A stretch of 64,000 bases of DNA from Octopus vulgaris (lineage: Eukaryota). Shown here one piece after another: positions 3,215 to 60,620 of this stretch (positions are counted from its first letter, which is position 1; each line of letters starts with the position of its first letter). A program made the translations under genes and the position numbers. The stretch lies in the NCBI GenBank assembly GCA_951406725.2, contig OX597824.1, forward strand, positions 29,450,001 through 29,514,000, written 5' to 3'. Below the pieces are notes generated by a model, which was not told the origin of the DNA, searched no databases, and saw only the letters and a list, made by a program, of their open reading frames with translations.

Positions 3215-4915
3215 TAAAGACGGAAAATGCGCACACTTTACATAGTTTTAATATATAATATATTTTATATTATGTTTGTCGACTGGTTTCGCTTTCGCTA
3301 ATCATGACATGAAAATTTATTTAAATACGTATTTTCTAAAGTCAAATGATTTTTGTCCATGTTGTGTGTGCAGTTTATGAATGAATGATTCAACAAGTAG
3401 AAAAAATCGAATGGGAGGTAATTGGTGATCGTTATTATTATAGACAGAGGAGACAATTGTCCGTCTTTCGCTGGTGGGGTGCGGAATATATACACAAAAT
3501 TTTGCCAAATTAAAGGTGGTATTTATTTTGATGTGTTTTGGGTGGCATGAGCTAAAAAGGAGATATTACTTCGAGTCCGTTGGTTTATGATAGATGTCAT
3601 TTATAATTTCGTTGTTGAATTTTTTTATCATAATATCCAAAACTGGGAGCTGTTCTTTGCTACATTCCATTGTGAAGTAAATGTTATGGTTTATATCGTT
3701 TAGTGTTAAATTGAATGTTGAAAGTTTATCAATGAAAGTTTATCAAATGATAAACAGTCATCCAGGTATCTTTCACAGTTTTCTCTTATATAATGGTGAA
3801 ATGAAGAACCATATTTTTGCAGTGACGCTTCATATATGGTGAATTCAAAATAACCCATTATCAGGTTCGCAAGAATAGGAGCTGCTTTCGTTCGCATCGC
3901 AATTCTGCATTTTTGACGATAGTAGGTGTCATAAAATAGGAAATAATTTTTCTGAAGTATAAATTCTAAAGATTCAATAATAAAGACCTGCTTTATGCGT
4001 TCCGGAAGTACTTCGGGATACTTATACAACCAGAATTTGATTGCTTTTATTCCATAGTCATGTGAGATGTTGGTGTGAAGATTGATTACATCGAAGGAAA
4101 CCAATAATACCTCTTTATTAATTGTTTTTGGTAGGTACTCTAGCATGTCTAAATCGTCTCGATTGAAACTTTTGATGTATTTCAGCAAGGGTTTCATTAG
4201 GATGTCTAGAAAATTGCTTAGGCGTTGGGTTTCACAGGCTAGGCCAGCTATAATGGGCCACATCTTTAAGTCTTCTGGCGCTTGGATATTTATATATTTG
4301 CCTGATGATTGTTTGCAGGCTTGATTAACTATTTTGCTCACCTGTATTTTAGGTAGGCCGTAAAAAATACTAGGTTTACATTTAAAGTTCGTGATATAAT
4401 ATATTTCTTTTTCTGTCTGGCCTTTTCCATGTAAAAGTATTAAGGACGCAAGATTTTTCATTGTTTTTTGTTATTTATAATTTACAACTTTTTCGTAGAA
4501 GGTATCGTTTTCTAGCATGGATAATACTAGGTTTTTGTAGAATCCTTTGTCCATCAAAACTACCTCACTTCCTTTGTCTGCTTTTTTAATTGTCAGGTCT
4601 TTGTCATTTTGTTGTTCAAATAGATTTTTCCATTCTAGATTGTGGAGGTTTGAATTAATTTTACATTTATGGAAAGTATATGAGAAATTTTGGATATGGT
4701 CGCAGAAGTCATCTAGTGTTATATTCCTACTTTTAGGTAAAAGGTAATTCTGATTTTAACCAGTGACTCATCTTCGTTGTTGTAGTCAGTTAGTGCTTCT
4801 GTGAGTCGTAGTTTTCTGCAGAATTCCGAAATACTGTCTTTAATTTCATTATAGTTAGATCTTCGTGGGGTTGGGGTAAATTTTAATCCTTTAGCCAGTA
4901 TACTTATTTTTGTCA
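3215..4915 (-). mobile_element. Decayed Penelope-like element (PLE) reverse transcriptase
   Basis: Minus-strand remnants LAKGLKFTPTP, IKKADKG, FYGLPKI..PIIAG, LVSFDV..L.TNI, NYF...YYRQ...AM.T..AP.LANL.M, RYLDD, YHKPTDS; several frameshifts and stops; no GIY-YIG domain visible. Confidence 0.88.
3277..3309 (-). ncRNA. Degenerate minimal type I hammerhead ribozyme motif at the PLE 3' end
   Basis: Minus strand reads TGTC-ATGATTA-GC GAAA GC-GAAA-CCAG-TC-GACA: stem I TGTC/GACA, core two mismatches from CUGAUGA, 2-bp stem II with GAAA loop. Confidence 0.6.
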
Positions 4916-19621: not shown

Positions 19622-19830
19622 TATTTCTTTACTACCCACAAGGGGCTAAACACAGAGAGGACAAACAAGGACAGACAAACGGATTAAATCGATTATATCG
19701 ACCCCAGTACGTAACTGGTACTTAATTTATTGACCCCGAAAGGATGAAAGGCAAAGTCGACCTCGGCGGAATTTGAACTTAGAACGTAGCAGCAGGCGAA
19801 ATACCGTAACTCATTTCGTCCAGCGTGCTG
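19622..19830 (-). mobile_element. Meta-domain tRNA SINE with 16-bp TSD
   Basis: Family core plus tail ending GTAGTAAAGAAATA; flanking ATACATATAAAAT(T/A)CC at 19606-19621 and 19832-19847. Confidence 0.9.
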
Positions 19831-22290: not shown

Positions 22291-22912
22291 ATATTCCTTT
22301 CTACTCTAGCCACAAGGCACGAAATTTGAGGTGGGGGCAGTCGATTATATCGACACCAGTGCGTAACTGGTACTTAATTTTTCGACCCCGAAAGAATGAA
22401 AGGCAAAGTCGACCTCGGCAGAATTTGAACTCAAAACGTAACGGCAGACGAAATACTGCTAAGCATTTCGCCCGGCGTGCTAACGGTTCTTATCTCTTTA
22501 TTGCCCACAACGGGTTAAACATAGAGGGGACAAACAAAGGCAGACAAAGTGATTAAGTCGATTACATCGAGCCCAGTGCGTAACTGGTACTTAATTTATC
22601 GACCCCGAAAGAATGAAAGACAAAGTCGACCTCGGCGGAATTTGACCTCAGAACGTAACGGCAGACGAAATACCTATTTCTATTTCTTTACTACCCGCAA
22701 GAGGCTAAACACAGAGAGGACAAACAAGGGCAGACAAACGGTTTAAGTCGATTATATCGACCCCAGTGCGTAACTGGTACTTATTTAATCGACCATGAAA
22801 GGATGAAAGGCAAAGTCGACCTCGGCGGAATTTGAACTCAGAACGTAACGACAGACGAAATACGGCTACGCATTTCACCCGGCGTGCTAACGTTTCTTCC
22901 AGCTTGCCGCCC
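22291..22912 (-). mobile_element. Head-to-tail array of three Meta-domain SINE units
   Basis: Three copies of the GAAAGGCAAAGTCGACCTCGGC core; inner units lack part of the head; two tail types. Confidence 0.9.
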
Positions 22913-25220: not shown

Positions 25221-25267
25221 GTGTATATGTTTGTGTTTGTGTGTGTGTGTGTGTGTGTATACATATA

Positions 25268-25442
25268 GGCGCAGAAGTGGCTCTGTGGTAAGAAGCTTAC
25301 TTCCCAACTACATATTTCCGAGATCAGTCCCTCTGCGTGGCACCTTGGCCGAGTGTCTTCTACTATAGCCTCGGGCCGACCACAGCCTTGTGAGTCGAAT
25401 TGGTAGACGGAAACCGAAAGAAGACCGTCGTATATATGTGTG

Positions 25443-25498
<56 letters not shown>

Positions 25499-25697
25499 AG
25501 TGTGTGTATGTATTTGTGTGTCTGTGTTTGTCCCACCACCACCGCCATCGCTTGTTGGTGTGTTTACGTCCATGTAACTTAACATTTCGGCGAAAAGAGA
25601 CCGATAGAATAAATACTAAGCTTACAAAGAATAAGTTCCGGGGTCGATTTGTTCGACTAATGGCAGTGCTCCAGCATCGACGCAGTCAAATGACAAC
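25268..25697 (+). mobile_element. Full-length tRNA-derived CORE-like SINE with internal microsatellite
   Basis: GGCGCAGAAGTGGCTCTGTGGTAAG head (A box), CACCTTGG core, (TA)n(TG)n middle, …CTCCAGCAT..CGCAGTCAAATGAC tail; matches 60421-60828. Confidence 0.85.
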
Positions 25698-26062: not shown

Positions 26063-27013
26063 CGAAGGGTACCCAAAAGTAACCGGAAACGTTCTCTGTG
26101 GGAAAAAAACCCGTCGTAGCTCAGCCTTCCGCCGCTAGAAGCCACTTGGTGCGACTTTCAGGCATCAGTCTGTGGACTGGCGTCATCCCTTGTGGTCATA
26201 CTATGTGGTGTGTCTTTGTTTTGCAGTGCTTCTCCCTTGTTCGTCTATTTTCGCGATAGCTGAAACGAAGCAACAGCATGCTTCCGTGAAATTCTGTTTT
26301 CTATTCGGGAAAACAACGGCCGAAACAGTTGTCATGCTTCAAACAGATTACAAGGATGCTGCCATGAGCAAAACACAAGTTTACCAGTGGTTTCCACGCT
26401 TTAGGAGCGGTCACTTGTCGCTTGAGTACTAACCTCGTTCAGGGCGACCGTTAACCTCTCGAACGAATGAAAACATCATGAACATTCATGAACCGCTTTT
26501 AGCAGGACCGTCATAGAACAATTGACGAAGTTGTTGATATGGCTGGTGTGTGTGTCCTGGAGCTTCTGCCAACGCATTTTGAGTGAGGAATTGTGAATGA
26601 AAATTTGTGCCTGGCTTGCTCACGGAAGATCAGAAGCAGTCACTTCTGATTGCGTGTCGTGAACTGAAATAACAGTTGGAAGTTGATCTGGACCTCTTTC
26701 GAAGGTCATCACTGGTGACGAAAGCTGATGCTGAGGAATTTACAGATGTGAAAGCGGTAAAAGAAAAATGACGGAGGGGTTAAAAAGTATCACTTCGGAA
26801 GAGCTCCAGCACTGCTCCGAATAATGGAAAATGCAGCGAGCTGGCAGAATCTTTAGTACACCGGGTAAAATGCTTAGCATAATGGAAAATGCGCCTGGAC
26901 CGATGCATTGCTTCAAATGAAGAATACTTCGAAGGCGTTAAAAGTGTAAACATGTAAAACTAAGTGAATAAAATAATATTGAAAAATTCCGCTTTCTTAT
27001 GGATACCCCTTCG
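26063..27013 (+). mobile_element. Decayed mariner transposon with transposase pseudogene (internal deletion)
   Basis: TIRs CGAAGGGTACCCAAAAG…CGGAA / TTCCG…GGATACCCCTTCG with TA TSDs; remnants QHASVKFCFLFGKTTAETVVML..Y…VYQWF.RF..G, PRSGRP, VITGDES. Confidence 0.9.
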
Positions 27014-27114: not shown

Positions 27115-28077
27115 ATTGTTTAAAATTTCGTAAGAGGATCAGTAATTTTGAAGGGAGGGGTTAGTCGATTTCCATTAACCCTAGTATGTAATTGATGCTC
27201 TGTTTTATCGACCACGAAAAGTTGAAACGTGAAGTAGTCCTCGGTGGAATTTGAACTCAGAATGTAAAGAACTAAACAAAATTATGCAAAGTTAACGATT
27301 CAGCCAGCACATCGCCTTGATAATAATTTTCAAATTCAGGCACAAGACCAGCAATTTTAGGAGGAAAGGGGTTAGTCAATTACATCGACCTCATTACTTG
27401 GCAGGTACTTTATTTCATCGACTCTATAAGGATCAAAAGTAAAGTTGCCCTCGACAGAATTTCAACTTGGGACATAAAGAACCGGAATAAAAGTCATTAA
27501 GTAATTTGTCCGGCACGCTTACAATACTGCCAACACGCATCCTTTACCTTTTGTTTTTATAAAGATTTCACATTTTGGCACAGACACAGCAGTTTCGGTG
27601 GGAGAGATAAATTGATTATATCAACCCCAATGCTCAACTGGTACTTATCATCTTATTATCCCCGAAAGGATGAAAGGCAAATTCGACCTCGGCACATTTT
27701 GAACTCAGAAAGTAAAAATGCCGCCAAGTATTTTTTCCCCGCGTACTAACGATTCTTTTCTACTCTAGGCCCAAAGCCCAAACTTTTGAGGAGAGGGCCA
27801 GTCGATTAGATCGAACACAGTACGCAACTGGTACTTAATATATCAACCCCGAAAGGATGAAAGGCAAAATCGACCTCGGCAGATTTTGAACTCGGAATGT
27901 AACGACAGACGAAATACGGCTACACATTTCGCCCGGCTTGCTAACGTTTCTGCCAGTTCGCCGCCTTTGTCCTTAACAGTAACAGTAACATATAACTAAA
28001 CATATATGAACGTAAAAACGAATGAAATGCTGCTAAGCACTTTACCCGACGTACTTACGATTCTGCAAGCTCGCTGC
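27115..28077 (-). mobile_element. Array of about four Meta-domain SINE units plus a head fragment, of varying divergence
   Basis: Repeated core at ~27210, 27420, 27660 and 27850; heads at ~27960 and ~28070. Confidence 0.85.
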
Positions 28078-30215: not shown

Positions 30216-30914
30216 CGAGTAGATAGATAGATGGATAGATAGACAGATAGATAGATCAATCACCGCTTTATTTTTATCTACTTCTCTGTATACATCACAC
30301 TTCCGCTGTGTCACAGTATATATTTAAATATACGCATACTTATTAATTTAAGTATGCATATAATGAGGCAGTATAGTTAACAGGTTTGCTTCCCAAACCT
30401 GAAGCCTTAGGCTTAATCCCATAGCGAGGGAAGTTAGACACTTACTCTTATCATAGCTTCAGGTTGACACAAGTCTTGAGAGTGAACTTGTGGATAGGGA
30501 AATTGTGTGGAAGCCTGTTGTTTAGAATATACCTGTACTTCTAAGGTCGAACACTCACATGCATTAACGGAGCACGCAGCCACTTAGACGCTGATTTAAT
30601 AAGTATTTCGTCCCCTTTGTAGAGGAGCTGGACGCTCATATGTCGTAATTCAGAAGGAGACACATTCTTTGAATGCATGTGTTTGTGTGTGTGTGATGTG
30701 TGTGTGTGTGTGTACATGTGTGTGTGCGTGTGTCTACGAATGGCTATCGTCGTCATGCAAACTTAAATAAACTTTCATCTTTGAGTGTGTGAGCCTGTGT
30801 GTGTGTGCGTATAGGAATATATGCATACTTACATACCTGCATGTATATATAGATAGATATAGATATATACATATATACATACATACGTACGTACGTACAT
30901 ATATACATACATGA

Positions 30915-31146
30915 CGGCGGCGAGCTGGCAGAAACGTTAGCACGCCGGGCGAAATGCGTGGCCGTATTTCGTCTGCCGTTACGTTCTGAGTTCAAATTCC
31001 GCCGAGGTCGACTTTGCCTTTCATCCTTTCGGGGTCGATAAATTAAGTACCAGTTGTGCACTGGGGTCGATGTAATCGACTTAATCCCTTTGTCTGTCCT
31101 TGTTTGTCCTCTCTGTGTTTAGCCCCTTGTGGGTAGTAAAGAAATA
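30915..31146 (+). mobile_element. Full-length Meta-domain tRNA SINE with ~17-bp TSD
   Basis: GGCGGCGAGCTGGCAGAAACGTTAG (A box) … GAGTTCAAATTCC (B box) … GCCTTTCATCCTTTCGGGGTCGATAAATTAAGTACC … GGGTAGTAAAGAAATA; TSD CATATATACATACATGA. Confidence 0.92.
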
Positions 31147-31169
31147 CATATATACATACATGAATGCAT

Positions 31170-33674: not shown

Positions 33675-33992
33675 GCACCGTCGAGTAAAACGGCAAGCAT
33701 TCCAGTTGATCTGATCAATGGAACAGCCTGCTCGTGAACTTCACGTATAAAGGGCTGAACAATCCTGAGAAACGTGCAAACCCTTAACGTAGCTCTTACA
33801 GAGGTTCAGCATGACACAGAATGTGAAAAGACCGGCTCTTTCTACTACAAGTACTACTTATTTTTGGTTTTAGAGTAGACAAGAGCAACGTGAATTTGAA
33901 TGTTTTGTTCATGAACACAATGCGACGCCGGGAGTCGAACTCGCGACATAACGATAGTGAACCGAATTCCCTAACCATGAAGATATGCGCCT
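33675..33992 (-). mobile_element. tRNA-derived SINE (same family as 62662-63044), degenerate
   Basis: Reverse complement of the …GTTAATTTCACGAGCAGGCTGTTCC… tail and the GGCGCA…TGGTTAGGG…GTTCGACTCCC head. Confidence 0.75.
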
Positions 33993-34761: not shown

Positions 34762-36026
34762 CAGGAAGTAAATAGACACCTTTAATTTTCAATATCTTTC
34801 ATTTAATGTGCAAAGCGAACAATTGAAATGTAATCGATAGGTAGGACTACATACTTTAGTATTTAGTTGACATTTCCTTAGCAATTTTAATACAGAAACT
34901 CTTTTTGGCATTGAACTGATGAGCTTTATGGTTGTCTCTTGTGAAATTTCTGCCCACTTTTCACGCAACAATTGAAACAATTTACCTTTAGATTTAGGTT
35001 TCTGTCGAGTTTTTCGTATAGCTCTATTTAGTATGCTCCAAAGATTTTCAATTGGGTTCCTGTCAGGTGATTGGCTCGGCCAAGGAAGCTTTTTGATCCC
35101 ATTTTGAGTCAGCCATTGTTGATTCCTTTTCACTGTGTAGCATGGAGCCCCATCTTCCATGAATAAAAACTCATTTTTTATGTTATCGTGTGAATACATC
35201 GGAAGTAGTCCTTGCTTAAGTATTTCGATGTATCTTTCAGAGTTTATGGTTCCACCACATTCGATCAGCTCAGAACGACCGTTGCTGGTACATCTCCCCC
35301 TACCATTTCATTGATACCGTTATGTTTCACAGTTTGCTGGAGTCGTTTCAAATCAAATTCTTAATTGGGAAGACTCCAGATTCAAACACGTCCACTGCCT
35401 GAAAATAATGTAAATCTGGATTCATCTGAGAAAATCACTCTACTCCAAAATTAACTGGATTTTTCTGACATCTCCTTAGCCCATTTCTTTCTTTTCATAT
35501 TAATTGGTTGAAGGAGAGGTGTTCTTCTAGCTGCTCGTCCATAATACCCAAGCTTATGCAGATATGTAACACACGTTCTTGGGCTAACTTCTAGCTGTTT
35601 TGCAATGCCAGAAGCCTTCGAACGGGGTTCGTTTTCCACAATTCTCTTCAAAGAGCGAAGCTTCCTTTCCGAGGGCCTATGTCGGCCGGGACGAGAATCT
35701 ATTGATTCTTTTCTTGGCTTTTGAATTGCACTATAATTCTATTAACAGTAGCAAGATGAATTTTGAAGATTTTCGGCATTTTTTCGCTGGCTAAGACCAG
35801 CCTAAGATTGCCCAACAATACGACTTCTTTGAAAGTCTGACAGTTCGGCTGATTTTTTTTTTTTTTTTTTGCGTGACATGGTTATATGGTTATTCTTCGC
35901 AAATATTTAATATAATGGCACCTGGAATGAAAAAGAATAATTGCATTGTAAATTCTACACGGCTGAAAATATATTAAGACGCTTAGATCAGAAATTTTGA
36001 AAATAAAGGTGTCTATTTACTTCCTG
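34762..36026 (-). mobile_element. Decayed Tc1 (DD34E) transposon with transposase pseudogene
   Basis: TIRs CAGGAAGTAAATAGACACCTTTA at both ends; remnants VIFSDESRF and FMEDGAPC…WPSQSPDRNPIENLW (34 residues between D and E); frameshifted. Confidence 0.92.
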
Positions 36027-39769: not shown

Positions 39770-40118
39770 AGATAATTACGCTTTGATTATCATTATAGAA
39801 TATTTTTTTCGCTATATTTCTGACATCTATTTCCAGGCATACTGTTGTATTTCGTTCACCTCCTAACATTTCATGCGATATTTTACTCATACTTTCACTC
39901 ACACTCTGTCCCTATCTCTGTTTCTCTCCCCCTCTTCTTCCCTCTGTCTTTCGCAGCCTGTCTCTCAACCCCACTGTCCTTTCCCCCCTCTGGTTATCAC
40001 TATACAATTACATATATATAGTAGACTCACTAGAACATCTAGCAAATTGAAAAATGTTTTCAGTTTTGTGTTTTTCACTTCTCGGTTCAATCCCGACCGG
40101 TTTCTCTTTGCTTTTCAA

Positions 40119-40268
40119 TAGAGCCGAGGTAGACTTTGCCTTTCATCCTTTCGGGGTCGATAAATTAAGTACCAGTTACGCACTGGGGTCGATGTAATCG
40201 ACTTAATACCTATGTCTGTCCTTGTTTGTCCCCTCTGTGTTTAGCCCCTTGTGGGTAATAAAGAAATA
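40119..40268 (+). mobile_element. 5'-truncated Meta-domain SINE with 20-bp TSD
   Basis: TSD GGTTTCTCTTTGCTTTTCAA at 40099-40118 and 40269-40288; ends GGGTAATAAAGAAATA. Confidence 0.92.
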
Positions 40269-40500
40269 GGTTTCTCTTTGCTTTTCAAACTTCCTGGAGA
40301 AAATCTAGCATAGGCACCTGCATGGCTGTTTCGTAAATAAGGTCGTTTTGCAACCACGAGGCTTCGAGTTCAGGCCCACTGCACGACATCTTGGACAAGT
40401 ATCTTCTACTATCGCCTCGAACGGGACAATGAATTTGACAGAGAGAAATTGCACGGAAGTCCGTATACGCACGCACACATACACACACACATACACATAC

Positions 40501-40886: not shown

Positions 40887-41736
40887 GCCAAGGCTAACAT
40901 ATAGGCACAAGGCGATAAAGACCATGCCTCGTGTCTATATGTTATAACTTTTCAAAATCCACCACGCACGCGCGGTTTTTTCAGCAGTAAATACAAGTGC
41001 CGATTTTCTTTCAAAATTAGCCAAAAAAACCTTTTATCATTGCCGTTATGTTCTGAGTTGAATTTCTGCTGAGGTCAACTTTACCTTTCATCCTTTCGTG
41101 GTCGATAAATTAATATCTGAAACACTGGAGTCGATGTAATCGACTATCTCACTCTCCCAAATTTTAAGCCTTGTGCCTTTAGTAGAAAGGATTATTATTA
41201 TTAAGATGGTGATATGGCAGTAAGCCGAGTAAAAGGCTTAGCGGCATTTCGTCCGTCTTTACGCCCTACGTTCAAATGCTGCCGTTGTTCCACTTTGCTT
41301 TTCTTTTTCTTCCTTATGTGCCTTTAATGTCCCTTGTGGACAGTTGTAAGAGCTGGCGTGTGAAAATCATCTGACTGGAAGAAAGTTAAACCAAAGAAGG
41401 TTTTCGAATAAGTTTTGATTGCTCAAAAAATAAATAAATAAATAAAACACTGTATACTTCTAAAGGTATCTTGAAATGGACCATTGTCCACCAGATGTCG
41501 TCATTGAACAATTTCTTCCACTTCTACGCTATTTGGAAGATATAAAAAATATTTGTCTTGAAAATGTCACATCTAATTTTTGTCATACATGTCACAACTG
41601 GATAAATAAGAATTGTTACGAGATATTTCTGTCTAGCAACCATTATTAGGAATTTATTAAATTTCAAAACCATTGTAAAAAAACACAAAGAGACTTTTTA
41701 TGCTGCTCTCAAGAAATTCAGAGGAATTAGCAAATA

Positions 41737-42227
41737 CAGTAATCCCTCGCCATATCGCGGTTCACCTATCACGGTTTATTATTTAAGATTACATCTTTAC
41801 GTTCTGAGTTCAAATTCCGCCGAGATTGACTTTGCCTTTCATCATTTTAGGGTCGATAAATTAAGTACCAGTTGCGTACTGGGTTCGATCTAATCGAGTG
41901 GTTCCCTCCCCCAAAATTTCAGGCCTTGTGCCTAGAATAGAAAGGATATTTTAAGCTTACGTCTTTACGTTCTGAGTTCAAATTCCGTCGAGGTCGACTT
42001 TGCCTTTCATCCTTTCGGAGCCTTGTGCCTAGAGTAGAAAAGGTTATTTAAACCTTGCGTCGATTCCTCCGTGGTATTGTTTTGCATTTATAATAAAATA
42101 AAAATATACAAATTATAAAAATAATTTTAAAAAATTATACTCTACAATATTGTTTCTACTTCGCGGATTTTCTCCAATCGCGAGTGGGGTTTGGAACCTA
42201 ATATCCGCGATAGTCGAGGGATTACTA
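41737..42227. mobile_element. pogo/Tigger-like MITE carrying nested SINE fragments
   Basis: TIRs CAGTAATCCCTCG…/…CGAGGGATTACTA, TA flanks; homologous to 9735-9956 apart from the ~41790-42050 insert. Confidence 0.8.
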
Positions 42228-42526: not shown

Positions 42527-42697
42527 TGCAGACATAGCTATGTGGTAAGAAGTTTGTTTCTCAACCACATGGCTCCAGGTTCAGTCCCACTAATTGGGGC
42601 CTTGACCAATTGTCTTCTACTGTAGCTTCGGGACGAACAAGGCCTTGAAAGTGAATTTGGTTGACAGAAACAGAAAGGAACCCATCGTGTATATGTA

Positions 42698-42744
<47 letters not shown>

Positions 42745-46732: not shown

Positions 46733-46893
46733 GAGGCATGGCTTTGTTGTACGAACTTTGCTTCCCAACCATATGGCTCTGGGTTCAGTCCAACAGTGTG
46801 GCACCTTCGGCAAGTGTCTTCAACTATAGCTTCGGGACGAGTACACCCTTCTGAGTGGACATGGTACACGGAAACTGAAAGAAGTCCATCGTA
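46733..46893 (+). mobile_element. CORE-like SINE 5' half
   Basis: …GGGTTCAGTCC…GGCACCTTCGGCAAGTGTCTTC…GGAAACTGAAAGAAG. Confidence 0.75.
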
Positions 46894-46899
46894 TATATA

Positions 46900-47380
46900 T
46901 CTTTATATATATAAAACTGAGAATGTGTGTCTGCCTGTCTGTCTGTCTGTGTGGTTCCCTAAAACTTGAGAACTACACAACCAATTTCATTCAAATTTTA
47001 CACATGCCTTACTTAGGGTCCATGTAGTTTCATGGGCAAAAAAAATGTTCAACTTCTTGCCTAGAGCGAGCCCATAGCAATATCATATCTTCTCCACTAT
47101 TTCAGTATTACGTGTTAAAAGTGAAACAAAAACATTTCTCTATTTTATGTCAGATACTTTCACTTTAACAATAAAAATAATAATAACAATTGAATTATAT
47201 GTAGTAAGTAATAATTAAAATCAAACTAAAGTATATTATCGTAACATAACAAAAGTAAAAATATAGCAATTGGTATAAAATTGCATCAATGACTTGAACT
47301 TGAATCAGTGGTTTCACATGAATGGGAATAAATAAAAAATAAAATTTAAGTGCAGAAATGGAATAGTCCAGATGGAGGTG
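46900..47380 (+). mobile_element. Non-autonomous Helitron 5' portion (candidate 3' end at 58958-58987)
   Basis: A|TCTTTATATATATAAAA start, (TGTC)n, CCAATTTCATTCAAATTTT motif similar to the other Helitrons here. Confidence 0.6.
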
Positions 47381-47429: not shown

Positions 47430-47445
47430 TCTACTGAGTACCGCT
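47430..47445 (+). repeat. 16-bp target-site direct repeat TCTACTGAGTACCGCT, copy 1 of 3
   Basis: Identical copies at 47430-47445, 52706-52721 and 57982-57997 (period 5276 bp). Confidence 0.95.
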
Positions 47446-47629
47446 TCTGTTAATTGCGTTATTTTTCTGTTTGCGTTGTGAGAAAATTGCTGCCTCCATT
47501 TAAGAGAGTCGAAGTTGTGAATTTATTGTTTGTACCAACTGCTTTGAACAGTGCCCGTTGTGAAACGGTGATTTTCGCCCTACGGGGCAGAAAATTTTGT
47601 ATTATTTGAAATTTGCTACCTTTGAGGTG

Positions 47630-49054
47630 ATGGAGTTCGACTTAACGTCGAAGGACGATTTTCCCGTGATGGGAAAAGGTGAAACCATGGAAAACCCAGT
47701 AACCAAACAGTCATTCTCGGCCGCGGTGGGCGGCGCTATGATAGAGGTCGAATTCAAGATCGAACAGCTGTATGAATACAGGAATCTTGTAAAGGTGGAA
47801 GGAGGAGAGATAAGGCTGGTACCGCCGCAAGCGAAAGTGCAAGAAATCAAGGAAAGGATTGTAACTTATAAAGTGTATAGCTTTAAGGAAAAAAAGATTA
47901 TGGACGCGAAAAACGAAATTGTTGAGAAGTGCCTGTCCCCGGTGTGGGACAGAATTCGTCACATCGCGAGAGGCGCACGTAGTGCTACGGTAGAGGTGCA
48001 CTTCGACACGGCAGAAGTGGCGAAGGAGGTGTCGTCGTTAACCTTAAAAAGCGACGACATCATGTTGTTACCCTCGTATATGGGGAAACGAACTGCAAAG
48101 TTAGTGGTAGATGACATACCCAGAGGGTACGACATCATGTGGGTGGCAGCGGCGGTACTACACAACATGGAGCGGGAAATTTCAATTCTGCAAATGAGAA
48201 GGAAGGAAGTGGTACGCTGGAAGGGTCAGACCTTGGAACTCCTCGTACAGGCAGAGAACAAGATCTTGGAGAGCCTGCCTGACAGAATTTTTAATGAGGA
48301 CGGCACGTCCATGAGAGTGTCGGTGGAGGGACGTAGACCCAGATGCTTCAAGTGTGGAGAGAAGGGTCACGTCCGGTCCAACTGCATTAAGAAAAAAAGA
48401 ACAGAAGAAACGCCTCCTCAAAGTGTACCTGTCACTGAAGGGGAGGAAACAAGCAAGAACAACCAAATGAAGAAGACAAGTACGGAAACGAAAACGGATT
48501 CAAAAGAACCAATGGACTACACACAAGTCACACACAAAAGAAAAAAAGAGAACACCCAGGACTCCCCTCCCCAAACAAGGAAAAAAACAACAAACACAGC
48601 AGACACACACATTAAACAAATCCCCCAACCCTACCCCCATGGCACTGTTTTCATTGGAAAACAGTTTGCCAAACCCCTCCCCATAAAACAAGACATCAAA
48701 AAGTGCATATCGAAAAACGAAAGAATTATAGCCTTTGATGAAAAAAATGAAAAAGTTTACAAATGCTGCAAACTCGCGAGATTTCCACTGTATAGTAGAA
48801 CCTCAGATGGGAAGGCGACCGCTCGTTTCGCGAAGGTAGGGGAGAACGAGTGGAAGGAGGAGGTTCTTCAGGAACACCTGAGGAACCGTCTTATTAGAGA
48901 TGTAACCAAGGAGGTAATGGAGGGTAAACTGGCAATAACCCCGGCAACCACACCCACCCAGAGCCCAGTGGCAACGCCGGTCAAGAACCCTGCAGCAACG
49001 GAAGAAAGGGAAGCAGGCAGATTGAAACTGTCATGCTCCCTCTCGCAACCGTGA
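47630..49054 (+). CDS. ORF1 gag-like RNA-binding protein with zinc knuckle, intact in copy 1
   Basis: CFKCGEKGHVRSNC (CX2CX4HX4C) and N-terminal SFSAAV motif; first ATG at 47630, best Kozak context AACCATGG at 47687. Confidence 0.88.
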   Translation: MEFDLTSKDDFPVMGKGETMENPVTKQSFSAAVGGAMIEVEFKIEQLYEYRNLVKVEGGEIRLVPPQAKVQEIKERIVTYKVYSFKEKKIMDAKNEIVEKCLSPVWDRIRHIARGARSATVEVHFDTAEVAKEVSSLTLKSDDIMLLPSYMGKRTAKLVVDDIPRGYDIMWVAAAVLHNMEREISILQMRRKEVVRWKGQTLELLVQAENKILESLPDRIFNEDGTSMRVSVEGRRPRCFKCGEKGHVRSNCIKKKRTEETPPQSVPVTEGEETSKNNQMKKTSTETKTDSKEPMDYTQVTHKRKKENTQDSPPQTRKKTTNTADTHIKQIPQPYPHGTVFIGKQFAKPLPIKQDIKKCISKNERIIAFDEKNEKVYKCCKLARFPLYSRTSDGKATARFAKVGENEWKEEVLQEHLRNRLIRDVTKEVMEGKLAITPATTPTQSPVATPVKNPAATEEREAGRLKLSCSLSQP

Positions 49055-49082
49055 GTATATACATTTCCTTCTCTCACCCACA

Positions 49083-52000
49083 ATGGCTAAGCTGGGCTGT
49101 ATAAATGTACGTGGAATGGGGTCGAAACGGAAACAAATTTGTTTCCTGAACGACCTCACGACACACAGTGTAGATATTGCTATTGCAACCGAGTCCAAGA
49201 TGAGCGAGACCCAAGCGTTCTCGCCTCTTCTAAATGGTTTCGAGAAATTTATTTCTCCTAGCCGAGGAAGAGGCAGAGGCGTGGCAGTCTTCATCAGGAA
49301 GAGCTTGGACTTGCAGGTAAGTACTGTCTTTCTGGACCCAGAAGGCAGGCTGGTTGTCCTGGATGTGACTCACGTAAGTAAACAGTCCTTCAGGTTGGTA
49401 GCTGTCTACGCCCCGAACGAGGGTAGACAGACGGGTTTTTTCCGGAACCTGGAGCCCTTTTTAGCGACGTCGAAAACAGTAATCCTAGTAGGGGACTTTA
49501 ACACTGTCCTTGAAGCGCACATCGACAGTGTTGGCTCAACCAATAGGAAGGGGAACCCTAGCCTCAAGGGTCTACTAGAGAGCTTTGATCTAGTGGACCG
49601 TTACCGACTGGATGAGCCGAGCGTTCCACAGTGGACGTGGAGTAACAACGACGGCTCACACAGATCGTATCTAGATAGGATATTTATTAAGAAAAGAGAT
49701 AAGGATACGTTTAGTTGTCCACAATTTCATATTGTACCTTACTCGGATCACAAATTTGTGACGTGTGAGGTGCAATTAGACAAGTGTCATAGACAGGGAC
49801 CCGGGTACTGGAAGCTGAACAAGGCTATTTTGAATTGTGAAGACTTCCGTACCCGGATTAAGGTGTTAGTTCAGAGGGCATTGTGTGGCACCATCATTAA
49901 CAATAGATGGTGGCACGCCCTCAAAAGAGCCATTCGTTTAGAGTCCGTCAGATTTAGCAATCAGCTAAGGATAGATAGGGCTAGTCTAGAGGGCGATTTA
50001 GTCAAGAATCTAGACGAGGCAATGGAAGCTGGCTCTGCATCCGGAGTGTTGGCGGCAAGGACGGTATTGTACCGTCACCTTAACTCCAAGTACGAAGGTT
50101 GCAGAGTCAGAGCTAAGCTGCGTGCTGGGAAACGAGAAGGTATTAACGTGGCCGGATGGGCCCGTCGTGTGGAGAGTAAGAGAGGCAATAGAGCCTCAAT
50201 TAAATCTTTGACTGACGAACAGGGACAAAAGATCTATGGACAGGAGGAGATGCAAAAGTTTCTTCACCAGCATTTCGCTCGCGTGTTCGGGGGTGGTGGT
50301 TCGCTGGATCGGGGGAGGGCCTTAAAGGACTTCCTGGCCGGCGGACCGCGGCTCGCGGGGCGTGAAGTGGAGTGCTGTGAGGGAGCGATCACTCCCGCGG
50401 AGATAAAGGAGATACTGGCCGGATGCGCCGGGGAGAAGTCGCCGGGGTTGGATGGTCTGCCCTATGAGTTTTACCAAAGTATGCCGGACTTGTTCGGGGG
50501 AATACTGGCAGGCGTCTACACGAACTGGCAGCAGAATGGGAGAATCCCCAGTTCTGTAAGCCGGGGAGTGGTGACGCTAATCCAGAAAGACCCGAGCAAG
50601 GGGGATAATATTAGTAACTACAGGCCCATAACTCTACTTAATGTAGAGTTAAAGATTCTGGCCAAGGTGTTAGCAAAAAGGTTGACGGTTGTCGTGGAGA
50701 AACTTGTAGGGAGAGCACAGACATGTGCAATTCCAGGCAGGTCGATCCAGGACAATCTTCACCTTATACGCTACACCTTAGATAGGGTGGGTAAATTAGC
50801 CGGCAAAGGTGGGGTAATGGTCCATTTAGACCAAAGTAAAGCCTTCGATAGGGTAGACCATGGGTACCTGGCGACGGTCCTCGAAGCGACTGGGCTGGGC
50901 CCTGAATTTCGCGGGTGGATCTCCGCTATGTATAGCGGCATCAAGTCCACCGTCCAGATAAACGGTTACCTAACGGAACCGTTTTCGATCAAGTGTTCAG
51001 TGCGTCAGGGTGCCCCTTGTCACCACTTTTGTACGTATTGGCTCTTGAGCCACTGCTGCGAAAGTTGGAGAGGCTGGGGAGTAACTCGGATGAAATCGGA
51101 GGTGGGAGGACGGTGACTGCTTACGCGGATGACGTCACCCTCATCGTGTCCAAAGAGGCCCAACTACCTTGTGTGGAGGAGGTTATCAGAGGATACGAGG
51201 CGGTGGCAGGAGCAAAGGTTAACAAGGACAAATCGGTTGGCTTGCGCCTCGGCACCTGGAGGAGCAAGCCGATATCGTCCAGTGTCGTGGGACACTGGAC
51301 GGATGGCCCTGTTAAGTTGCTGGGAGTTTGGTTTGGACCAGACTCCCAAACGGAGAAGAACTGGAGCGAGGTGACGAGCAGGGTGGAGGCCATAGTACGG
51401 ACCTGGTCCGGAAGGTCTCTGTCCCTGAAAGGAAGGGCGGAGGTGGTGCAGATGTTTATTGCATCTGTAATCACCTACCGCCTGACCGTTGTCCCTTGCC
51501 CCGATTCATGGCTTAACAAGTTGGAACGAATCCTTTTCCGCTTTTTGTGGAAAGGAGGAAAGCCACTTGTGAGACGATCCGTTTGCTGCCAAGAACCGTT
51601 AAAGGGCGGGTTAGGGATGCCTTGGTTGATGATGCGCAGACATGCGTTGAGGCTAAGGCACCTCTGGCACCACCTGGAGGGTGATAAGGTGTGGAGTCCG
51701 CTGGCAGAGGGATTTTTCCCGAGACCGGCCTCCTTAGTTAATTTTAAACCCGGTTACATCAAAAGATGGAAACTGACTCCATGGCAAAAAGAGTGCCGAC
51801 AGGCACTCACGCTGATCCACAAGACGGGTAAGGCCGGCTGCGGAAATACCACCTCGGTATTTTATAGAGGGCTGGTGGAGGTAAAAAATGACGACGTCCT
51901 AGGAGGGGCTCTGGGGTTTGATGAAGACCAGCTCGCCAACCTGTTTAAAAAAACTTTCAGGTCGGGGTATTTGGATAATTTCCAAAGATCCCTGGCCTGG

Positions 52001-52471
52001 CAGTGCTACAGGAATGCTTTACCTGTTCGCGAGAAGTTATCGCGGCACGGAGTTCAAGTGCCACCGACGTGTCCAAGGTGCGGGTTGGACGATGAAACCG
52101 TCCAGCACGCCTTTGTTCACTGTCGGAAGTTGTCCGACTTGATAAGTTACGCAGAACACGTGTTGTCCCATCTGGGACGAGTACAGCTGTCGGCTGAGTC
52201 TATGATTAAGATGATACCGCCAACTGGACTCTCGAAGGAAGGTGAGGCATGTTTCCACTGCACGGTGGCAGTGGTAAAGGAATGCATGTGGAGAACGAGA
52301 ATGGAAGGAGCCGCGATAGGGTCCTTCATCTCCGGACCCGGCTTGCTCACTTACTTCAGATATCATCTGAAGAGCAAAATGGGGCTGGAGAAGAGGACCC
52401 TGCCGCGGGGTGTGTACGAGAAAAGATGGAAGGAAGTAGAAAGAAAGGTGGGTGTGAGAAACCCAGCTTGA
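49083..52471 (+). pseudogene. ORF2 (endonuclease-RT) of copy 1, split by a -1 frameshift at 51008-51010
   Basis: Same protein as copy 2 ORF2 except GGG instead of GGGG in the RQGCPLSP codons; may be a sequencing error. Confidence 0.85.
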
Positions 52472-52905
52472 TCATGGAGGAGAGAGAGGAAGTGGAAGCT
52501 GCAGGGCCTCACAAATTGCCGGGGTGTAAAAACGCCAGTGAGACGACAAGGTTACCTACTGTTGTTTGCTATACTAGTTAAGCAAAGGTTAATATTTTTA
52601 TAACGAATTTAAACAATTTTTAAACGATTCTCTTAAATGTTTTTGTATGTATGTCCTGTATTTGTAATTCTGTGTACCGATTTTTATAATCGTAATAAAG
52701 AAATATCTACTGAGTACCGCTTCTGTTAATTGCGTTATTTTTCTGTTTGCGTTGTGAGAAAATTGCTGCCTCCATTTAAGAGAGTCGAAGTTGTGAATTT
52801 ATTGTTTGTACCAACTGCTTTGAACAGTGCCCGTTGTGAAACGGTGATTTTCGCCCTACGGGGCAGAAAATTTTGTATTATTTGAAATTTGCTACCTTTG
52901 AGGTG

Positions 52906-54329
52906 ATGGAGTTCGACTTAACGTCGAAGGACGATTTTCCCGTGATGGGAAAAGGTGAAACCATGGAAAACCCAGTAACCAAACAGTCATTCTCGGCCGC
53001 GGTGGGCGGCGCTATGATAGAGGTCGAATTCAAGATCGAACAGCTGTATGAATACAGGAATCTTGTAAAGGTGGAAGGAGGAGAGATAAGGCTGGTACCG
53101 CCGCAAGCGAAAGTGCAAGAAATCAAGGAAAGGATTGTAACTTATAAAGTGTATAGCTTTAAGGAAAAAAAGATTATGGACGCGAAAAACGAAATTGTTG
53201 AGAAGTGCCTGTCCCCGGTGTGGGACAGAATTCGTCACATCGCGAGAGGCGCACGTAGTGCTACGGTAGAGGTGCACTTCGACACGGCAGAAGTGGCGAA
53301 GGAGGTGTCGTCGTTAACCTTAAAAAGCGACGACATCATGTTGTTACCCTCGTATATGGGGAAACGAACTGCAAAGTTAGTGGTAGATGACATACCCAGA
53401 GGGTACGACATCATGTGGGTGGCAGCGGCGGTACTACACAACATGGAGCGGGAAATTTCAATTCTGCAAATGAGAAGGAAGGAAGTGGTACGCTGGAAGG
53501 GTCAGACCTTGGAACTCCTCGTACAGGCAGAGAACAAGATCTTGGAGAGCCTGCCTGACAGAATTTTTAATGAGGACGGCACGTCCATGAGAGTGTCGGT
53601 GGAGGGACGTAGACCCAGATGCTTCAAGTGTGGAGAGAAGGGTCACGTCCGGTCCAACTGCATTAAGAAAAAAGAACAGAAGAAACGCCTCCTCAAAGTG
53701 TACCTGTCACTGAAGGGGAGGAAACAAGCAAGAACAACCAAATGAAGAAGACAAGTACGGAAACGAAAACGGATTCAAAAGAACCAATGGACTACACACA
53801 AGTCACACACAAAAGAAAAAAAGAGAACACCCAGGACTCCCCTCCCCAAACAAGGAAAAAAACAACAAACACAGCAGACACACACATTAAACAAATCCCC
53901 CAACCCTACCCCCATGGCACTGTTTTCATTGGAAAACAGTTTGCCAAACCCCTCCCCATAAAACAAGACATCAAAAAGTGCATATCGAAAAACGAAAGAA
54001 TTATAGCCTTTGATGAAAAAAATGAAAAAGTTTACAAATGCTGCAAACTCGCGAGATTTCCACTGTATAGTAGAACCTCAGATGGGAAGGCGACCGCTCG
54101 TTTCGCGAAGGTAGGGGAGAACGAGTGGAAGGAGGAGGTTCTTCAGGAACACCTGAGGAACCGTCTTATTAGAGATGTAACCAAGGAGGTAATGGAGGGT
54201 AAACTGGCAATAACCCCGGCAACCACACCCACCCAGAGCCCAGTGGCAACGCCGGTCAAGAACCCTGCAGCAACGGAAGAAAGGGAAGCAGGCAGATTGA
54301 AACTGTCATGCTCCCTCTCGCAACCGTGA
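52906..54329 (+). pseudogene. ORF1 of copy 2, split by a -1 frameshift in an A run at 53668-53673
   Basis: A6 versus A7 in copy 1 just after the zinc knuckle; may be a sequencing error. Confidence 0.82.
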
Positions 54330-54357
54330 GTATATACATTTCCTTCTCTCACCCACA

Positions 54358-57300
54358 ATGGCTAAGCTGGGCTGTATAAATGTACGTGGAATGGGGTCGA
54401 AACGGAAACAAATTTGTTTCCTGAACGACCTCACGACACACAGTGTAGATATTGCTATTGCAACCGAGTCCAAGATGAGCGAGACCCAAGCGTTCTCGCC
54501 TCTTCTAAATGGTTTCGAGAAATTTATTTCTCCTAGCCGAGGAAGAGGCAGAGGCGTGGCAGTCTTCATCAGGAAGAGCTTGGACTTGCAGGTAAGTACT
54601 GTCTTTCTGGACCCAGAAGGCAGGCTGGTTGTCCTGGATGTGACTCACGTAAGTAAACAGTCCTTCAGGTTGGTAGCTGTCTACGCCCCGAACGAGGGTA
54701 GACAGACGGGTTTTTTCCGGAACCTGGAGCCCTTTTTAGCGACGTCGAAAACAGTAATCCTAGTAGGGGACTTTAACACTGTCCTTGAAGCGCACATCGA
54801 CAGTGTTGGCTCAACCAATAGGAAGGGGAACCCTAGCCTCAAGGGTCTACTAGAGAGCTTTGATCTAGTGGACCGTTACCGACTGGATGAGCCGAGCGTT
54901 CCACAGTGGACGTGGAGTAACAACGACGGCTCACACAGATCGTATCTAGATAGGATATTTATTAAGAAAAGAGATAAGGATACGTTTAGTTGTCCACAAT
55001 TTCATATTGTACCTTACTCGGATCACAAATTTGTGACGTGTGAGGTGCAATTAGACAAGTGTCATAGACAGGGACCCGGGTACTGGAAGCTGAACAAGGC
55101 TATTTTGAATTGTGAAGACTTCCGTACCCGGATTAAGGTGTTAGTTCAGAGGGCATTGTGTGGCACCATCATTAACAATAGATGGTGGCACGCCCTCAAA
55201 AGAGCCATTCGTTTAGAGTCCGTCAGATTTAGCAATCAGCTAAGGATAGATAGGGCTAGTCTAGAGGGCGATTTAGTCAAGAATCTAGACGAGGCAATGG
55301 AAGCTGGCTCTGCATCCGGAGTGTTGGCGGCAAGGACGGTATTGTACCGTCACCTTAACTCCAAGTACGAAGGTTGCAGAGTCAGAGCTAAGCTGCGTGC
55401 TGGGAAACGAGAAGGTATTAACGTGGCCGGATGGGCCCGTCGTGTGGAGAGTAAGAGAGGCAATAGAGCCTCAATTAAATCTTTGACTGACGAACAGGGA
55501 CAAAAGATCTATGGACAGGAGGAGATGCAAAAGTTTCTTCACCAGCATTTCGCTCGCGTGTTCGGGGGTGGTGGTTCGCTGGATCGGGGGAGGGCCTTAA
55601 AGGACTTCCTGGCCGGCGGACCGCGGCTCGCGGGGCGTGAAGTGGAGTGCTGTGAGGGAGCGATCACTCCCGCGGAGATAAAGGAGATACTGGCCGGATG
55701 CGCCGGGGAGAAGTCGCCGGGGTTGGATGGTCTGCCCTATGAGTTTTACCAAAGTATGCCGGACTTGTTCGGGGGAATACTGGCAGGCGTCTACACGAAC
55801 TGGCAGCAGAATGGGAGAATCCCCAGTTCTGTAAGCCGGGGAGTGGTGACGCTAATCCAGAAAGACCCGAGCAAGGGGGATAATATTAGTAACTACAGGC
55901 CCATAACTCTACTTAATGTAGAGTTAAAGATTCTGGCCAAGGTGTTAGCAAAAAGGTTGACGGTTGTCGTGGAGAAACTTGTAGGGAGAGCACAGACATG
56001 TGCAATTCCAGGCAGGTCGATCCAGGACAATCTTCACCTTATACGCTACACCTTAGATAGGGTGGGTAAATTAGCCGGCAAAGGTGGGGTAATGGTCCAT
56101 TTAGACCAAAGTAAAGCCTTCGATAGGGTAGACCATGGGTACCTGGCGACGGTCCTCGAAGCGACTGGGCTGGGCCCTGAATTTCGCGGGTGGATCTCCG
56201 CTATGTATAGCGGCATCAAGTCCACCGTCCAGATAAACGGTTACCTAACGGAACCGTTTTCGATCAAGTGTTCAGTGCGTCAGGGGTGCCCCTTGTCACC
56301 ACTTTTGTACGTATTGGCTCTTGAGCCACTGCTGCGAAAGTTGGAGAGGCTGGGGAGTAACTCGGATGAAATCGGAGGTGGGAGGACGGTGACTGCTTAC
56401 GCGGATGACGTCACCCTCATCGTGTCCAAAGAGGCCCAACTACCTTGTGTGGAGGAGGTTATCAGAGGATACGAGGCGGTGGCAGGAGCAAAGGTTAACA
56501 AGGACAAATCGGTTGGCTTGCGCCTCGGCACCTGGAGGAGCAAGCCGATATCGTCCAGTGTCGTGGGACACTGGACGGATGGCCCTGTTAAGTTGCTGGG
56601 AGTTTGGTTTGGACCAGACTCCCAAACGGAGAAGAACTGGAGCGAGGTGACGAGCAGGGTGGAGGCCATAGTACGGACCTGGTCCGGAAGGTCTCTGTCC
56701 CTGAAAGGAAGGGCGGAGGTGGTGCAGATGTTTATTGCATCTGTAATCACCTACCGCCTGACCGTTGTCCCTTGCCCCGATTCATGGCTTAACAAGTTGG
56801 AACGAATCCTTTTCCGCTTTTTGTGGAAAGGAGGAAAGCCACTTGTGAGACGATCCGTTTGCTGCCAAGAACCGTTAAAGGGCGGGTTAGGGATGCCTTG
56901 GTTGATGATGCGCAGACATGCGTTGAGGCTAAGGCACCTCTGGCACCACCTGGAGGGTGATAAGGTGTGGAGTCCGCTGGCAGAGGGATTTTTCCCGAGA
57001 CCGGCCTCCTTAGTTAATTTTAAACCCGGTTACATCAAAAGATGGAAACTGACTCCATGGCAAAAAGAGTGCCGACAGGCACTCACGCTGATCCACAAGA
57101 CGGGTAAGGCCGGCTGCGGAAATACCACCTCGGTATTTTATAGAGGGCTGGTGGAGGTAAAAAATGACGACGTCCTAGGAGGGGCTCTGGGGTTTGATGA
57201 AGACCAGCTCGCCAACCTGTTTAAAAAAACTTTCAGGTCGGGGTATTTGGATAATTTCCAAAGATCCCTGGCCTGGCAGTGCTACAGGAATGCTTTACCT

Positions 57301-57747: not shown

Positions 57748-58032
57748 TCATGGAGGAGAGAGAGGAAGTGGAAGCTGCAGGGCCTCACAAATTGCCGGGG
57801 TGTAAAAACGCCAGTGAGACGACAAGGTTACCTACTGTTGTTTGCTATACTAGTTAAGCAAAGGTTAATATTTTTATAACGAATTTAAACAATTTTTAAA
57901 CGATTCTCTTAAATGTTTTTGTATGTATGTCCTGTATTTGTAATTCTGTGTACCGATTTTTATAATCGTAATAAAGAAATATCTACTGAGTACCGCTGTT
58001 AGTTTATTTCTGATCCATAAAGGTCTATAGCT

Positions 58033-58490: not shown

Positions 58491-58581
58491 TATATATATA
58501 CAATTGCAGCGTGGAAGGTGTTTATAAGCCATTTAAGAAACACGCAAAAGCCGTTCGATTCACTTCAACATTTAAGTTTAA

Positions 58582-58631
58582 TTTGTCAAAATATTTTCGT
58601 CGCTAAAATCCGCGACCTGTTCACTGACAAA
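58582..58631 (-). ncRNA. Minimal type I hammerhead motif, G3-C8 variant (left arm)
   Basis: Reverse complement of 58703-58752. Confidence 0.7.
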
Positions 58632-58702
58632 AATCCGTGCTGCATCCGATGCAGTGTGTGTGTGTGTGTGTCTGTGTGCTACTGGTAGATGCAGCACGGA
58701 TT

Positions 58703-58752
58703 TTTGTCAGTGAACAGGTCGCGGATTTTAGCGACGAAAATATTTTGACAAA
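58703..58752 (+). ncRNA. Minimal type I hammerhead motif, G3-C8 variant (right arm)
   Basis: TTTGTCA-GTGAACA-G-GTCGC GGATTTTA GCGAC-GAAA-ATAT-TT-TGACAAA. Confidence 0.7.
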
Positions 58753-58957
58753 TTAAACTTAAATGTTGAAGTGAATCGAACGGCTTTTGTGTGTTTCTTA
58801 AATGGCTTACAAACACCTTCCACGCTGCAATTGTTTTCGTTTCAGCACACGATCTCAGATCAAATTACTTGCTATGCGAGTACATCTCTGTATATATATA
58901 GATGTACATGTAATATGTACACATATATATACACATATATACATGCACAAGCACTAT

Positions 58958-60137: not shown

Positions 60138-60420
60138 GGACTTATTGCCTTCTGAAAGTCTCAAAAGACTTTCAAAGTGCTGCGATTGTATCAACACACT
60201 CTTAAGTTGGATTGTGTAATAGAGATAACTAAACGACAAAATTGTATCTACCAGTAGCACACAGACACACACACACATATACATTATAAGGACAAGTTTA
60301 AATTGGTAATATATGTTAAAATTATAATCGCCAATTTCACACAGGAAGTCCAAACCGTCGGTTAATGGACATGGTTCTTTCGTGCCTGAGATTGTTTCTT
60401 ATGATATGTAATATCATATA

Positions 60421-60584: not shown

Positions 60585-60620
<36 letters not shown>

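Follow-up and report, generated by a model that had tools for sequence, protein, structure and literature searches.

Tail sharing between short and long interspersed elements (SINEs and LINEs), and the swapping of such tails, are well known; the eel pair UnaSINE/UnaL2, with the loop in its common end, is a familiar example, and elements of the L1 group are the textbook exception. Maize, sorghum and Chlamydomonas are the hosts for which stringent pairs within the L1 clade have been reported (PMC3472496, PMC3747384), and poly(A) ends were found in 224 of 233 flowering-plant L1 families (Ohshima 2012, PMC3472496; Ohshima 2013, PMC3747384). In the survey of SINE/LINE pairs by the same author, the L1 clade accounts for 3 of 58 pairs; in the parts of that paper at hand none of these is animal, and Tx1 is named only in the phylogeny (PMC3747384). 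Mobilisation by Tx1-clade elements was inferred for the SINEU elements of crocodilians through shared targets (Kojima 2015, PMC4494074), and bivalve SINEs carry tails of CR1-Zenon, Nimb, L2 and CR1 elements, with 35-61 nt shared at 72-95% identity (PMC11481361). We analysed a stretch of 64,000 nucleotides of Octopus vulgaris DNA (contig OX597824.1, positions 29,450,001 to 29,514,000; hereafter the window, numbered from its first letter), which contains many copies of one SINE, the full-length copy at 30916-31146 among them, and two copies of a Tx1-type retrotransposon. In our best reading of these sequences, one SINE body would have repeatedly used the tails of a Tx1-type lineage that lacks poly(A) and has a structured 3' end, and we estimate the probability that the SINE tails come from this lineage at about 80%.

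The full-length SINE measures 231 nt, and its head and body (167 nt) are present in at least 22 body-bearing pieces of the window. After position 167 the copies diverge into tails of type A (five copies and a decayed sixth) or B/C (17 copies). In the copy at 30916-31146 (plus strand), head and body extend to 31081, tail A covers 31082-31146, and a 17-bp target-site duplication (TSD) lies at 30898-30914 and 31147-31163. Two further type-A copies are truncated at the 5' end: one at 40119-40268 (plus strand), between 20-bp TSDs at 40099-40118 and 40269-40288, and one at 19622-19829 (minus strand), with a 16-bp TSD matching at 15 of 16 positions. The remaining two, at 22681-22911 and 22491-22673 (minus strand), provide the two A tails of a nested cluster. 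Short, non-coding, dispersed and multicopy, with TSDs and 5' truncations, the family has the properties of a SINE. The Tx1-type copies lie head to tail at 47446-52705 and 52722-57981 (plus strand), and a 16-bp direct repeat, which we read as their TSD, stands before, between and after them (47430-47445, 52706-52721 and 57982-57997). The part of their 3' end that can be aligned to tail A (52646-52705, and again 57922-57981) includes a hairpin at 52678-52692 with the loop TTTAT and an AATAAA at 52694-52699, 6 nt past which the element terminates. Poly(A) was found at none of the type-A SINE or Tx1 ends in the window. The TSD lengths given in the original prediction (16, 17 and 20 bp for the SINEs and 16 bp for Tx1) were all found again, and the same holds for its statement that neither element carries poly(A).

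The case for a Tx1-type source of the tails starts with types B and C, which resemble the 3' ends of relatives of the window's element. A single scan of genome contigs with an ORF2 (second open reading frame) alignment gave 46 loci, 39 of which (L001-L037, L042 and L046) overlap and are eukaryotic DNA within one bacterial metagenome-assembled genome record; Tx1-type arrays filed under a bacterium are, incidentally, a case of eukaryotic contamination of the genome collection. From these relatives we took nine families, each represented by one 3' end, and eight of them are 92-98% identical to one another in ORF2. To the window's element the relatives are 39-41% identical in ORF2, their ORF1 is homologous to its ORF1 (E 1e-10 to 1e-13), and they form its sister group with a support of 0.95 in a tree of 66 rows and 441 columns (FastTree, unrooted, midpoint-rooted). 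At the 3' end of the relatives, a C-rich tract comes first, then a small stem whose loop is CT(T/C/A)GT, then a second hairpin, and finally AATAAA; poly(A) follows none of 51 such ends (34 distinct contexts). The B/C tail corresponds to the C-rich tract with the small stem, matching at 28 of 31 nt in the best-preserved B-tailed copy (41797-41946, plus strand; tail block ~41903-41935). When a profile of the nine relative 3' ends was run against the window, six of its eight matches fell on B/C tails, with a best E of 1.3e-4 and, in second place, an E of 0.039 for a C-type tail at 27320-27376 (minus strand); a covariance model of the same ends found the place of the best match with an E of 3e-5. 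None of 200 block-shuffled windows reached the best score, and the reversed window gave one match at E 7.6. Conversely, a profile built from 14 of the 17 B/C tails gave 43 matches in the overlapping set of 46 loci, and every one of them lay in the 3' block of the relatives; the best E was 7e-4, and most values lay at 0.2-3. According to these results, chance similarity is largely refuted for the B/C tails.

The shared block starts where the SINE body stops and the tails diverge, and neither head nor body of the SINE has a match in the 46 loci. Both facts favour a transfer from LINE to SINE. They bear on the reverse direction, in which a Tx1-type 3' untranslated region (UTR) acquired a SINE tail and the match would say nothing about what mobilises the SINE. 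SINEs are indeed far commoner, with more than 20 pieces in 64 kb, and they insert into other elements, as that direction would need; against it, besides the missing head and body, stands the fact that the block closes the LINE and is conserved across families only 49% identical in ORF2. We regard the reverse direction as very improbable.

The relatives also point to an end that is maintained as a structure. Their second, terminal hairpin varies in sequence and length and yet pairs in 95% of 63 cells, against 40-65% in slid controls, and its covariation score was reached by none of 500 shuffles. Four of five folded ends have z scores between -1.9 and -3.9 (L001, -1.3). L001, which is 49% identical to the other relatives in ORF2, retains the 3' block. 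Since the relatives keep a covarying hairpin end in place of poly(A), stringent 3'-end recognition is plausible for this lineage.

Tail A resembles the 3' end of the window's own Tx1-type element. The alignment announced by the original prediction was recovered, with 42 of 61 columns identical between the last 60 nt of Tx1 and the best copy (40119); for the copy at 30916 the figure is 40 of 59. The claim that the last 13 nt are shared holds for copy 40119, where the exact terminal identity extends to 14 nt, and for no other of the five; three copies, that at 30916 included, have the last 10 nt identical and then AGTAAA in place of AATAAA, and one copy has more changes. With +1/-1 scoring, the observed score was reached in 0-14 of 3000 shuffles for four of the five A copies. 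When scores were anchored at the 3' end, these four copies had their best place among 127,461 end positions at the last base of Tx1, the values for Tx1 and the runner-up being 17 and 16, 19 and 14, 16 and 13, and 18 and 16. The A copies are not independent tests. Tail A resembles the Tx1 end moderately beyond chance, and homology with the 3' terminus of some Tx1-type lineage is the most likely reason; the case is made stronger by the other SINE tails, which match the Tx1 relatives independently.

Chance likeness between low-complexity tails would be compatible with the fifth copy (22491-22673), which does not stand out from shuffles, and with unanchored scores that are equalled elsewhere in the window, as the TG/TC-rich first half of tail A would lead one to expect. 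One such competitor, at 41281, turned out to belong to a further copy of the SINE. Chance would have to account for two tail types that both match 3' ends of one LINE lineage, and for shuffled, block-shuffled and reversed sequences that all score lower; as an explanation of the whole pattern it is extremely improbable.

Tail A and the Tx1 end also share a putative hairpin, which in the copy at 30916 lies at 31122-31134 (plus strand; a 4-pair stem with the 5-nt loop CTTGT, weak by folding energy). The original prediction described a hairpin of different sequence at the same position. Indeed, the two hairpins are in the same register, their 5-nt loops are CTTGT and TTTAT, and all four pairs are kept, three of them changed on both sides; shuffles yield four of four pairs in 3.9% and five of five in 1.7% of cases. 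The Tx1 end and copy 40119 take the same extended hairpin as minimum-energy fold, with the conserved flanks pairing together, and the consensus fold of the alignment is this extended hairpin again (-3.1 kcal/mol). The decayed sixth A-type copy (~41205-41350, plus strand) carries a stem GTCC/GGAC around the CTTGT loop that is compensatory relative to tail A. That loop occurs in tail A and in 9 of the 17 B/C tails, and its counterpart CT(T/C/A)GT in all nine relatives, with differing stems. A pair count for the B/C tails (41 of 68, against 17-33 in slid positions) was not relied on, the loop having been located by sequence and four copies misplaced; folding energy was likewise set aside, since for the hairpins in the window it was not significant and so proves nothing. 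Covariation is thus seen in the relatives' terminal hairpin and modest between tail A and the window's Tx1 (p 0.02-0.04), and the shared hairpin of the latter two, position, loop size and double changes included, may be taken as suggestive, not as proof.

Several observations weigh against our interpretation. For tail A, the copy at 22491-22673 fails both tests, its score being reached by 352-1417 of 3000 shuffles and its anchored rank falling short; without anchoring, a site at 13841 (minus strand) outscores the Tx1 end for three of the other four copies; with scores in the manner of blastn, shuffles come up to the observed value in as many as 56 of 3000 cases; the anchored margins amount to 1-5 points only; and identity to the Tx1 end is 68-69%, with a first half rich in TG/TC. 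When the five A tails were combined in an nhmmer profile, neither the Tx1 end (E<=5) nor the relatives were found. The window hairpins are no more stable than shuffles (z -0.6 for copy 40119 and -0.7 for Tx1); of four folded SINE copies, one has the hairpin in its minimum-energy fold and the other three fold otherwise. Among the relatives, changes on both sides affect only two of seven pairs (27 of 500 shuffles), the three pairs around the 5-nt loop are invariant, and the covariation count comes from nine related sequences, eight of them close kin. Most matches of the B/C profile are weak singly (E 0.01-3), with seven matches at E 3.4 in reversed loci, and the B/C tails end differently from the relatives, without the second hairpin and AATAAA. 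Finally, the relatives' profile and covariance model both miss the 3' end of the window's Tx1, whose 3' UTR gave no useful alignment to those of L001 or L002, so that the link between this end and the relatives is one of architecture, not of sequence.

The miss of the A-tail profile fits another view of tail A, namely that it is an edited B/C tail whose likeness to the window's Tx1 is partly convergence on a TG-rich tract and AATAAA, the link to the lineage being old and single. The A and B tails do have the CTTGT loop in common, with 15 of 20 nt around it, and the loop of the window's Tx1 is TTTAT. Convergence on a poly(A) signal nevertheless fails as an explanation of the match, because 321 other A(A/G)TAAA sites score lower (at best 11 against 19 and 10 against 17 in the anchored comparison, for the two copies tested). 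Furthermore, AATAAA is absent from three of the five A copies, and SINE and Tx1 stop at the same base after a match of ~60 nt. On balance, derivation of tail A by editing is improbable.

If the tails come from this lineage, their closest sources may differ. Tail A would probably derive from the sub-lineage of the window's element, as a sister family rather than this one, and tails B/C from members nearer to the relatives in L001-L037; that the partner is exactly the window's Tx1 family is doubtful. The original prediction had also favoured a relative as partner, on the ground that the target motifs differ. The conclusion is likely to be right in view of the 69% tail identity, and the reason does not hold in this lineage, since 16-nt spacers are unrelated among the eight families that are 92-98% identical in ORF2, and a differing target motif is therefore no sign of a different mobilising family.

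A partner outside the Tx1 lineage also has to be considered: a CR1, L2, RTE, I/Nimb or Dong element whose end is similar or which has exchanged 3' ends with the Tx1 lineage. Known SINE partners in molluscs are CR1-Zenon, Nimb, L2 and CR1 (PMC11481361), RTE, Dong-R4 and CR1 elements are active in Octopus vulgaris (PMC13282606), and the terminal stretch of the B/C tails is missing in the relatives. The window itself offers no other LINE for comparison: its 65 frames of at least 75 aa yielded no further LINE protein domain, only mariner/Tc1 pieces and two weak matches. Several facts speak the other way: the reciprocal profile matches land on Tx1-type ends, the SINE TSDs of 16-20 bp equal those of Tx1, and the A tails lack a microsatellite end. 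Such a partner is, in our judgement, quite improbable.

The scenario we propose is that RNA polymerase III (Pol III) makes the SINE RNA and that the ORF2 protein of a Tx1-type element binds its structured 3' end, probably at the stem with the 5-nt loop, by analogy with stringent LINEs (PMC3747384). The target would then be nicked and reverse transcription primed at the last templated base, according to the standard scheme of target-primed reverse transcription; a second nick 16-20 nt away would generate the long TSDs, which are the observed products; and tails may have been exchanged as Tx1 families turned over. Sequence match, common terminal base, TSDs, lack of poly(A) and covarying ends in the relatives are what was observed, and which protein acts and whether the structure is needed are what we infer from them. 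Mobilisation of the SINE by this lineage appears likely, and we lean, somewhat less firmly, towards a requirement for the 3' structure.

Pol III transcription is suggested by motifs resembling an A box (30926-30936) and a B box (30990-31000, both on the plus strand, identified by eye against the consensus), together with the absence of T4 runs from all five A copies; the Tx1 end has a T5 at the corresponding place. The SINE is probably of the tRNA type on these grounds. ARAGORN found no tRNA in it and Rfam no match on it; over the whole window, the best 150 of 328 Rfam matches were all to microRNA families, on simple repeats and below the gathering score. The body may resemble the central domain of the Inv/Nin SINE superfamily.

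Some SINE copies are arranged in tandem or nested, at 22295-22911, 27320-27965, 41041-41350 and 41797-42053. In the cluster at 22295-22911 (minus strand), the flanking repeat of a B-tailed SINE has decayed to 14 matches in 17 positions, and inside this SINE lie the two A tails, ending at 22681 and 22491, with junctions at body positions ~49 and ~16. The cluster may be read as a B-tailed copy that received two A insertions. The junction at body position 16 recurs, once following the A tail at 22491 and once following the B tail at 27757, and at 22675-22680 (minus strand) the terminal 6 nt of tail A are duplicated once, in a manner reminiscent of template slippage. The B/C tails, the sixth A-type copy and the A copies nested inside a B copy are additions to the first description of this locus.

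The Tx1-type element itself is, judged by its domains, an L1-group non-LTR (long terminal repeat) retrotransposon with a Tx1-type ORF1. The label Tx1-type rests on domain content, the reverse transcriptase (RT) tree of 66 rows holding unnamed relatives and no named Tx1 sequence. In copy 1, ORF1 (47630-49054) is open and has a CCHC knuckle, and ORF2 is frameshifted near 51008; in copy 2, ORF1 is frameshifted near 53667 and ORF2 (54358-57747) is open, with APE endonuclease, RT and zf-RVT domains. Two 1-bp indels, each breaking another ORF, are the sole differences between the copies; they may reflect sequencing error or real complementation between neighbours. The best PDB matches of ORF2 are human L1 ORF2p (E 1e-67) and R2 (E 1e-25). 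ORF1, of 474 aa, has zf-CCHC as its sole Pfam match, without Transposase_22, and leads in the Atlas to CCHC and ZCCHC3-like clusters (0.90-0.92); ORF1s with CCHC have been described as consistent with Tx1 (PMC5203782). Its residues 1-260 have a single match, a protein of Octopus sinensis, at 57% identity. In L001-L029, ORF1 is longer where intact (636-756 aa), and homology is confined to the N-terminal 260 aa. Downstream of copy 2, the segment 57998-58460 was rejected as the start of another Tx1 (blastx E 8.7, no match to the ORF1 profile, 67 of 300 shuffles as good); by eye it looks like a 5' UTR and the start of an ORF1, with a near-copy of the 16-mer (12 of 16) at ~58033.

The arrangement of the two copies has parallels in the relatives. 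The loci L001-L037, L042 and L046 contain long head-to-tail arrays, with one family and one 16-nt spacer in each as far as seen, and the spacer also precedes 5'-truncated copies at two distinct junctions (L004 and L009 have the same one). Since the spacer behaves as a TSD before truncated copies, the tandem in the window is probably genuine and not a duplication made in assembly. As to target preference, the two window copies share one 16-bp repeat, and this family is known from one locus only. We speculate, with considerable doubt, that the RNA end is read twice, its structure selecting the poly(A)-less template and its base pairing the target. The basis is the unrelated spacers of the eight families together with the 16-nt spacer at two distinct truncated junctions. 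Transcripts would pass AATAAA into the TSD copy, and this extension would pair with the nicked DNA; each family would re-insert at its own 16-nt TSD and build its own array, whatever the endonuclease prefers; and the SINE would inherit the rule, inserting into its own copies and at sites that start with GGT(A/T)TT, a motif that begins three of the five type-A sites. Recognition of the element's own 3' end by the endonuclease, or unequal crossing-over, fits the arrays as well. If true, double reading of the end would mean that an L1-group element chooses its targets by RNA guidance and in a self-propagating way, and it would be the engine behind a major octopus SINE family.

The rest of the window is microsatellite-rich animal DNA in which no host gene was recognised among the 65 frames. 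Copies of a second SINE-like family, which contains a microsatellite internally, occupy 60417-60823 and 62011-62418 (minus strand), 25262-25694, 42533-42699 and 46739-46960. At 62660-63080 (plus strand, 3' to 5') lies a third SINE-like element; its head is tRNA-like, and a partial copy of it is at 33700-33857. Tc1/mariner transposase remnants (DDE_3, HTH_Tnp_Tc3_2, HTH_48) are found at 34792-35738 (minus strand) and 26139-26429 (plus strand). Decayed frames at 3706-4755 (minus strand), without a Pfam RT match, resemble by eye a Penelope-type reverse transcriptase. A long inverted repeat seen by eye at 58500-58835 has ~150-bp arms around a short microsatellite, and ~1 kb of degenerate, purine-skewed repeats (A/G-rich on the minus strand) covers 61000-62030.

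The SINE itself has probably been catalogued already. It may be one of the octopus SINEs, OK, OR1 or OR2, or a Repbase or Dfam entry; these octopus SINEs were reportedly described by Ohshima and Okada in 1994. OR1 and OR2 are cited as tRNA-derived octopus SINEs, with no partner LINE given in the portions of the papers at hand (PMC4824008, PMC4758252). In the literature searched, which did not extend to Repbase, Dfam or the octopus SINE paper of 1994, no SINE/Tx1 tail-sharing pair was found; by term counts, Tx1 is absent from the main text of PMC11481361, PMC4824008, PMC3531059 and PMC5786205, and in the available text of PMC4758252, PMC8967140 and PMC10294476 it appears in other contexts only. 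An animal Tx1-type end that is structured, lacks poly(A) and was borrowed more than once would bear on the question whether the L1 group was stringent in its recognition from the start and mammals later relaxed it. SINEs make up 11.6% of the O. vulgaris genome, in which 13 L1-Tx1 families were recently active (PMC13282606), and the Tx1-type lineage is a candidate driver of the octopus SINE expansion. For O. vulgaris, 80 consensus families of L1-Tx1 have been reported. In the window, ORF1 and ORF2 are each open in one copy, and a cis element of 60 nt comes with natural variants of its stem.

How does this locus compare with the systems described so far? Like Tx1L, Keno, Kibi and Koshi (PMC4494074), the element has two ORFs and is inserted repeatedly at one site; unlike them, it has no recognised multicopy target, and the relatives' spacers differ between near-identical families. 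With SINEU and Tx1-Mar the locus shares the proposed mobilisation by the Tx1 clade, tandem copies around a 16-nt TSD and insertion into other elements. SINEU differs by its U1/U2 small nuclear RNA (snRNA) heads and its poly(A), and no LINE with its 3' end was found (PMC4494074), whereas the window SINE has no Rfam match and shares a 3' end that lacks poly(A). The L1-clade pairs ZmSINE2/3 and LINE1-1_ZM in maize, and SINEX-3_CR and L1-1_CR in Chlamydomonas, are similar in that ~50 nt of 3' end are common and the hairpin stem varies while the loop is kept; these pairs are plant or algal, however, and the algal one has poly(A) (PMC3472496, PMC3747384). In eel UnaSINE/UnaL2 and the bivalve SINEs, as we propose here, one body swaps tails among LINE partners and a stem-loop is recognised. 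The bivalve partners belong to other LINE clades, and the 69% identity of tail A falls below the range of those pairs, whereas the 28 of 31 nt of tail B lie inside it over a slightly shorter length (PMC11481361). Relative to all these systems, the new element at this locus would be the sharing of SINE tails with a Tx1-type lineage.
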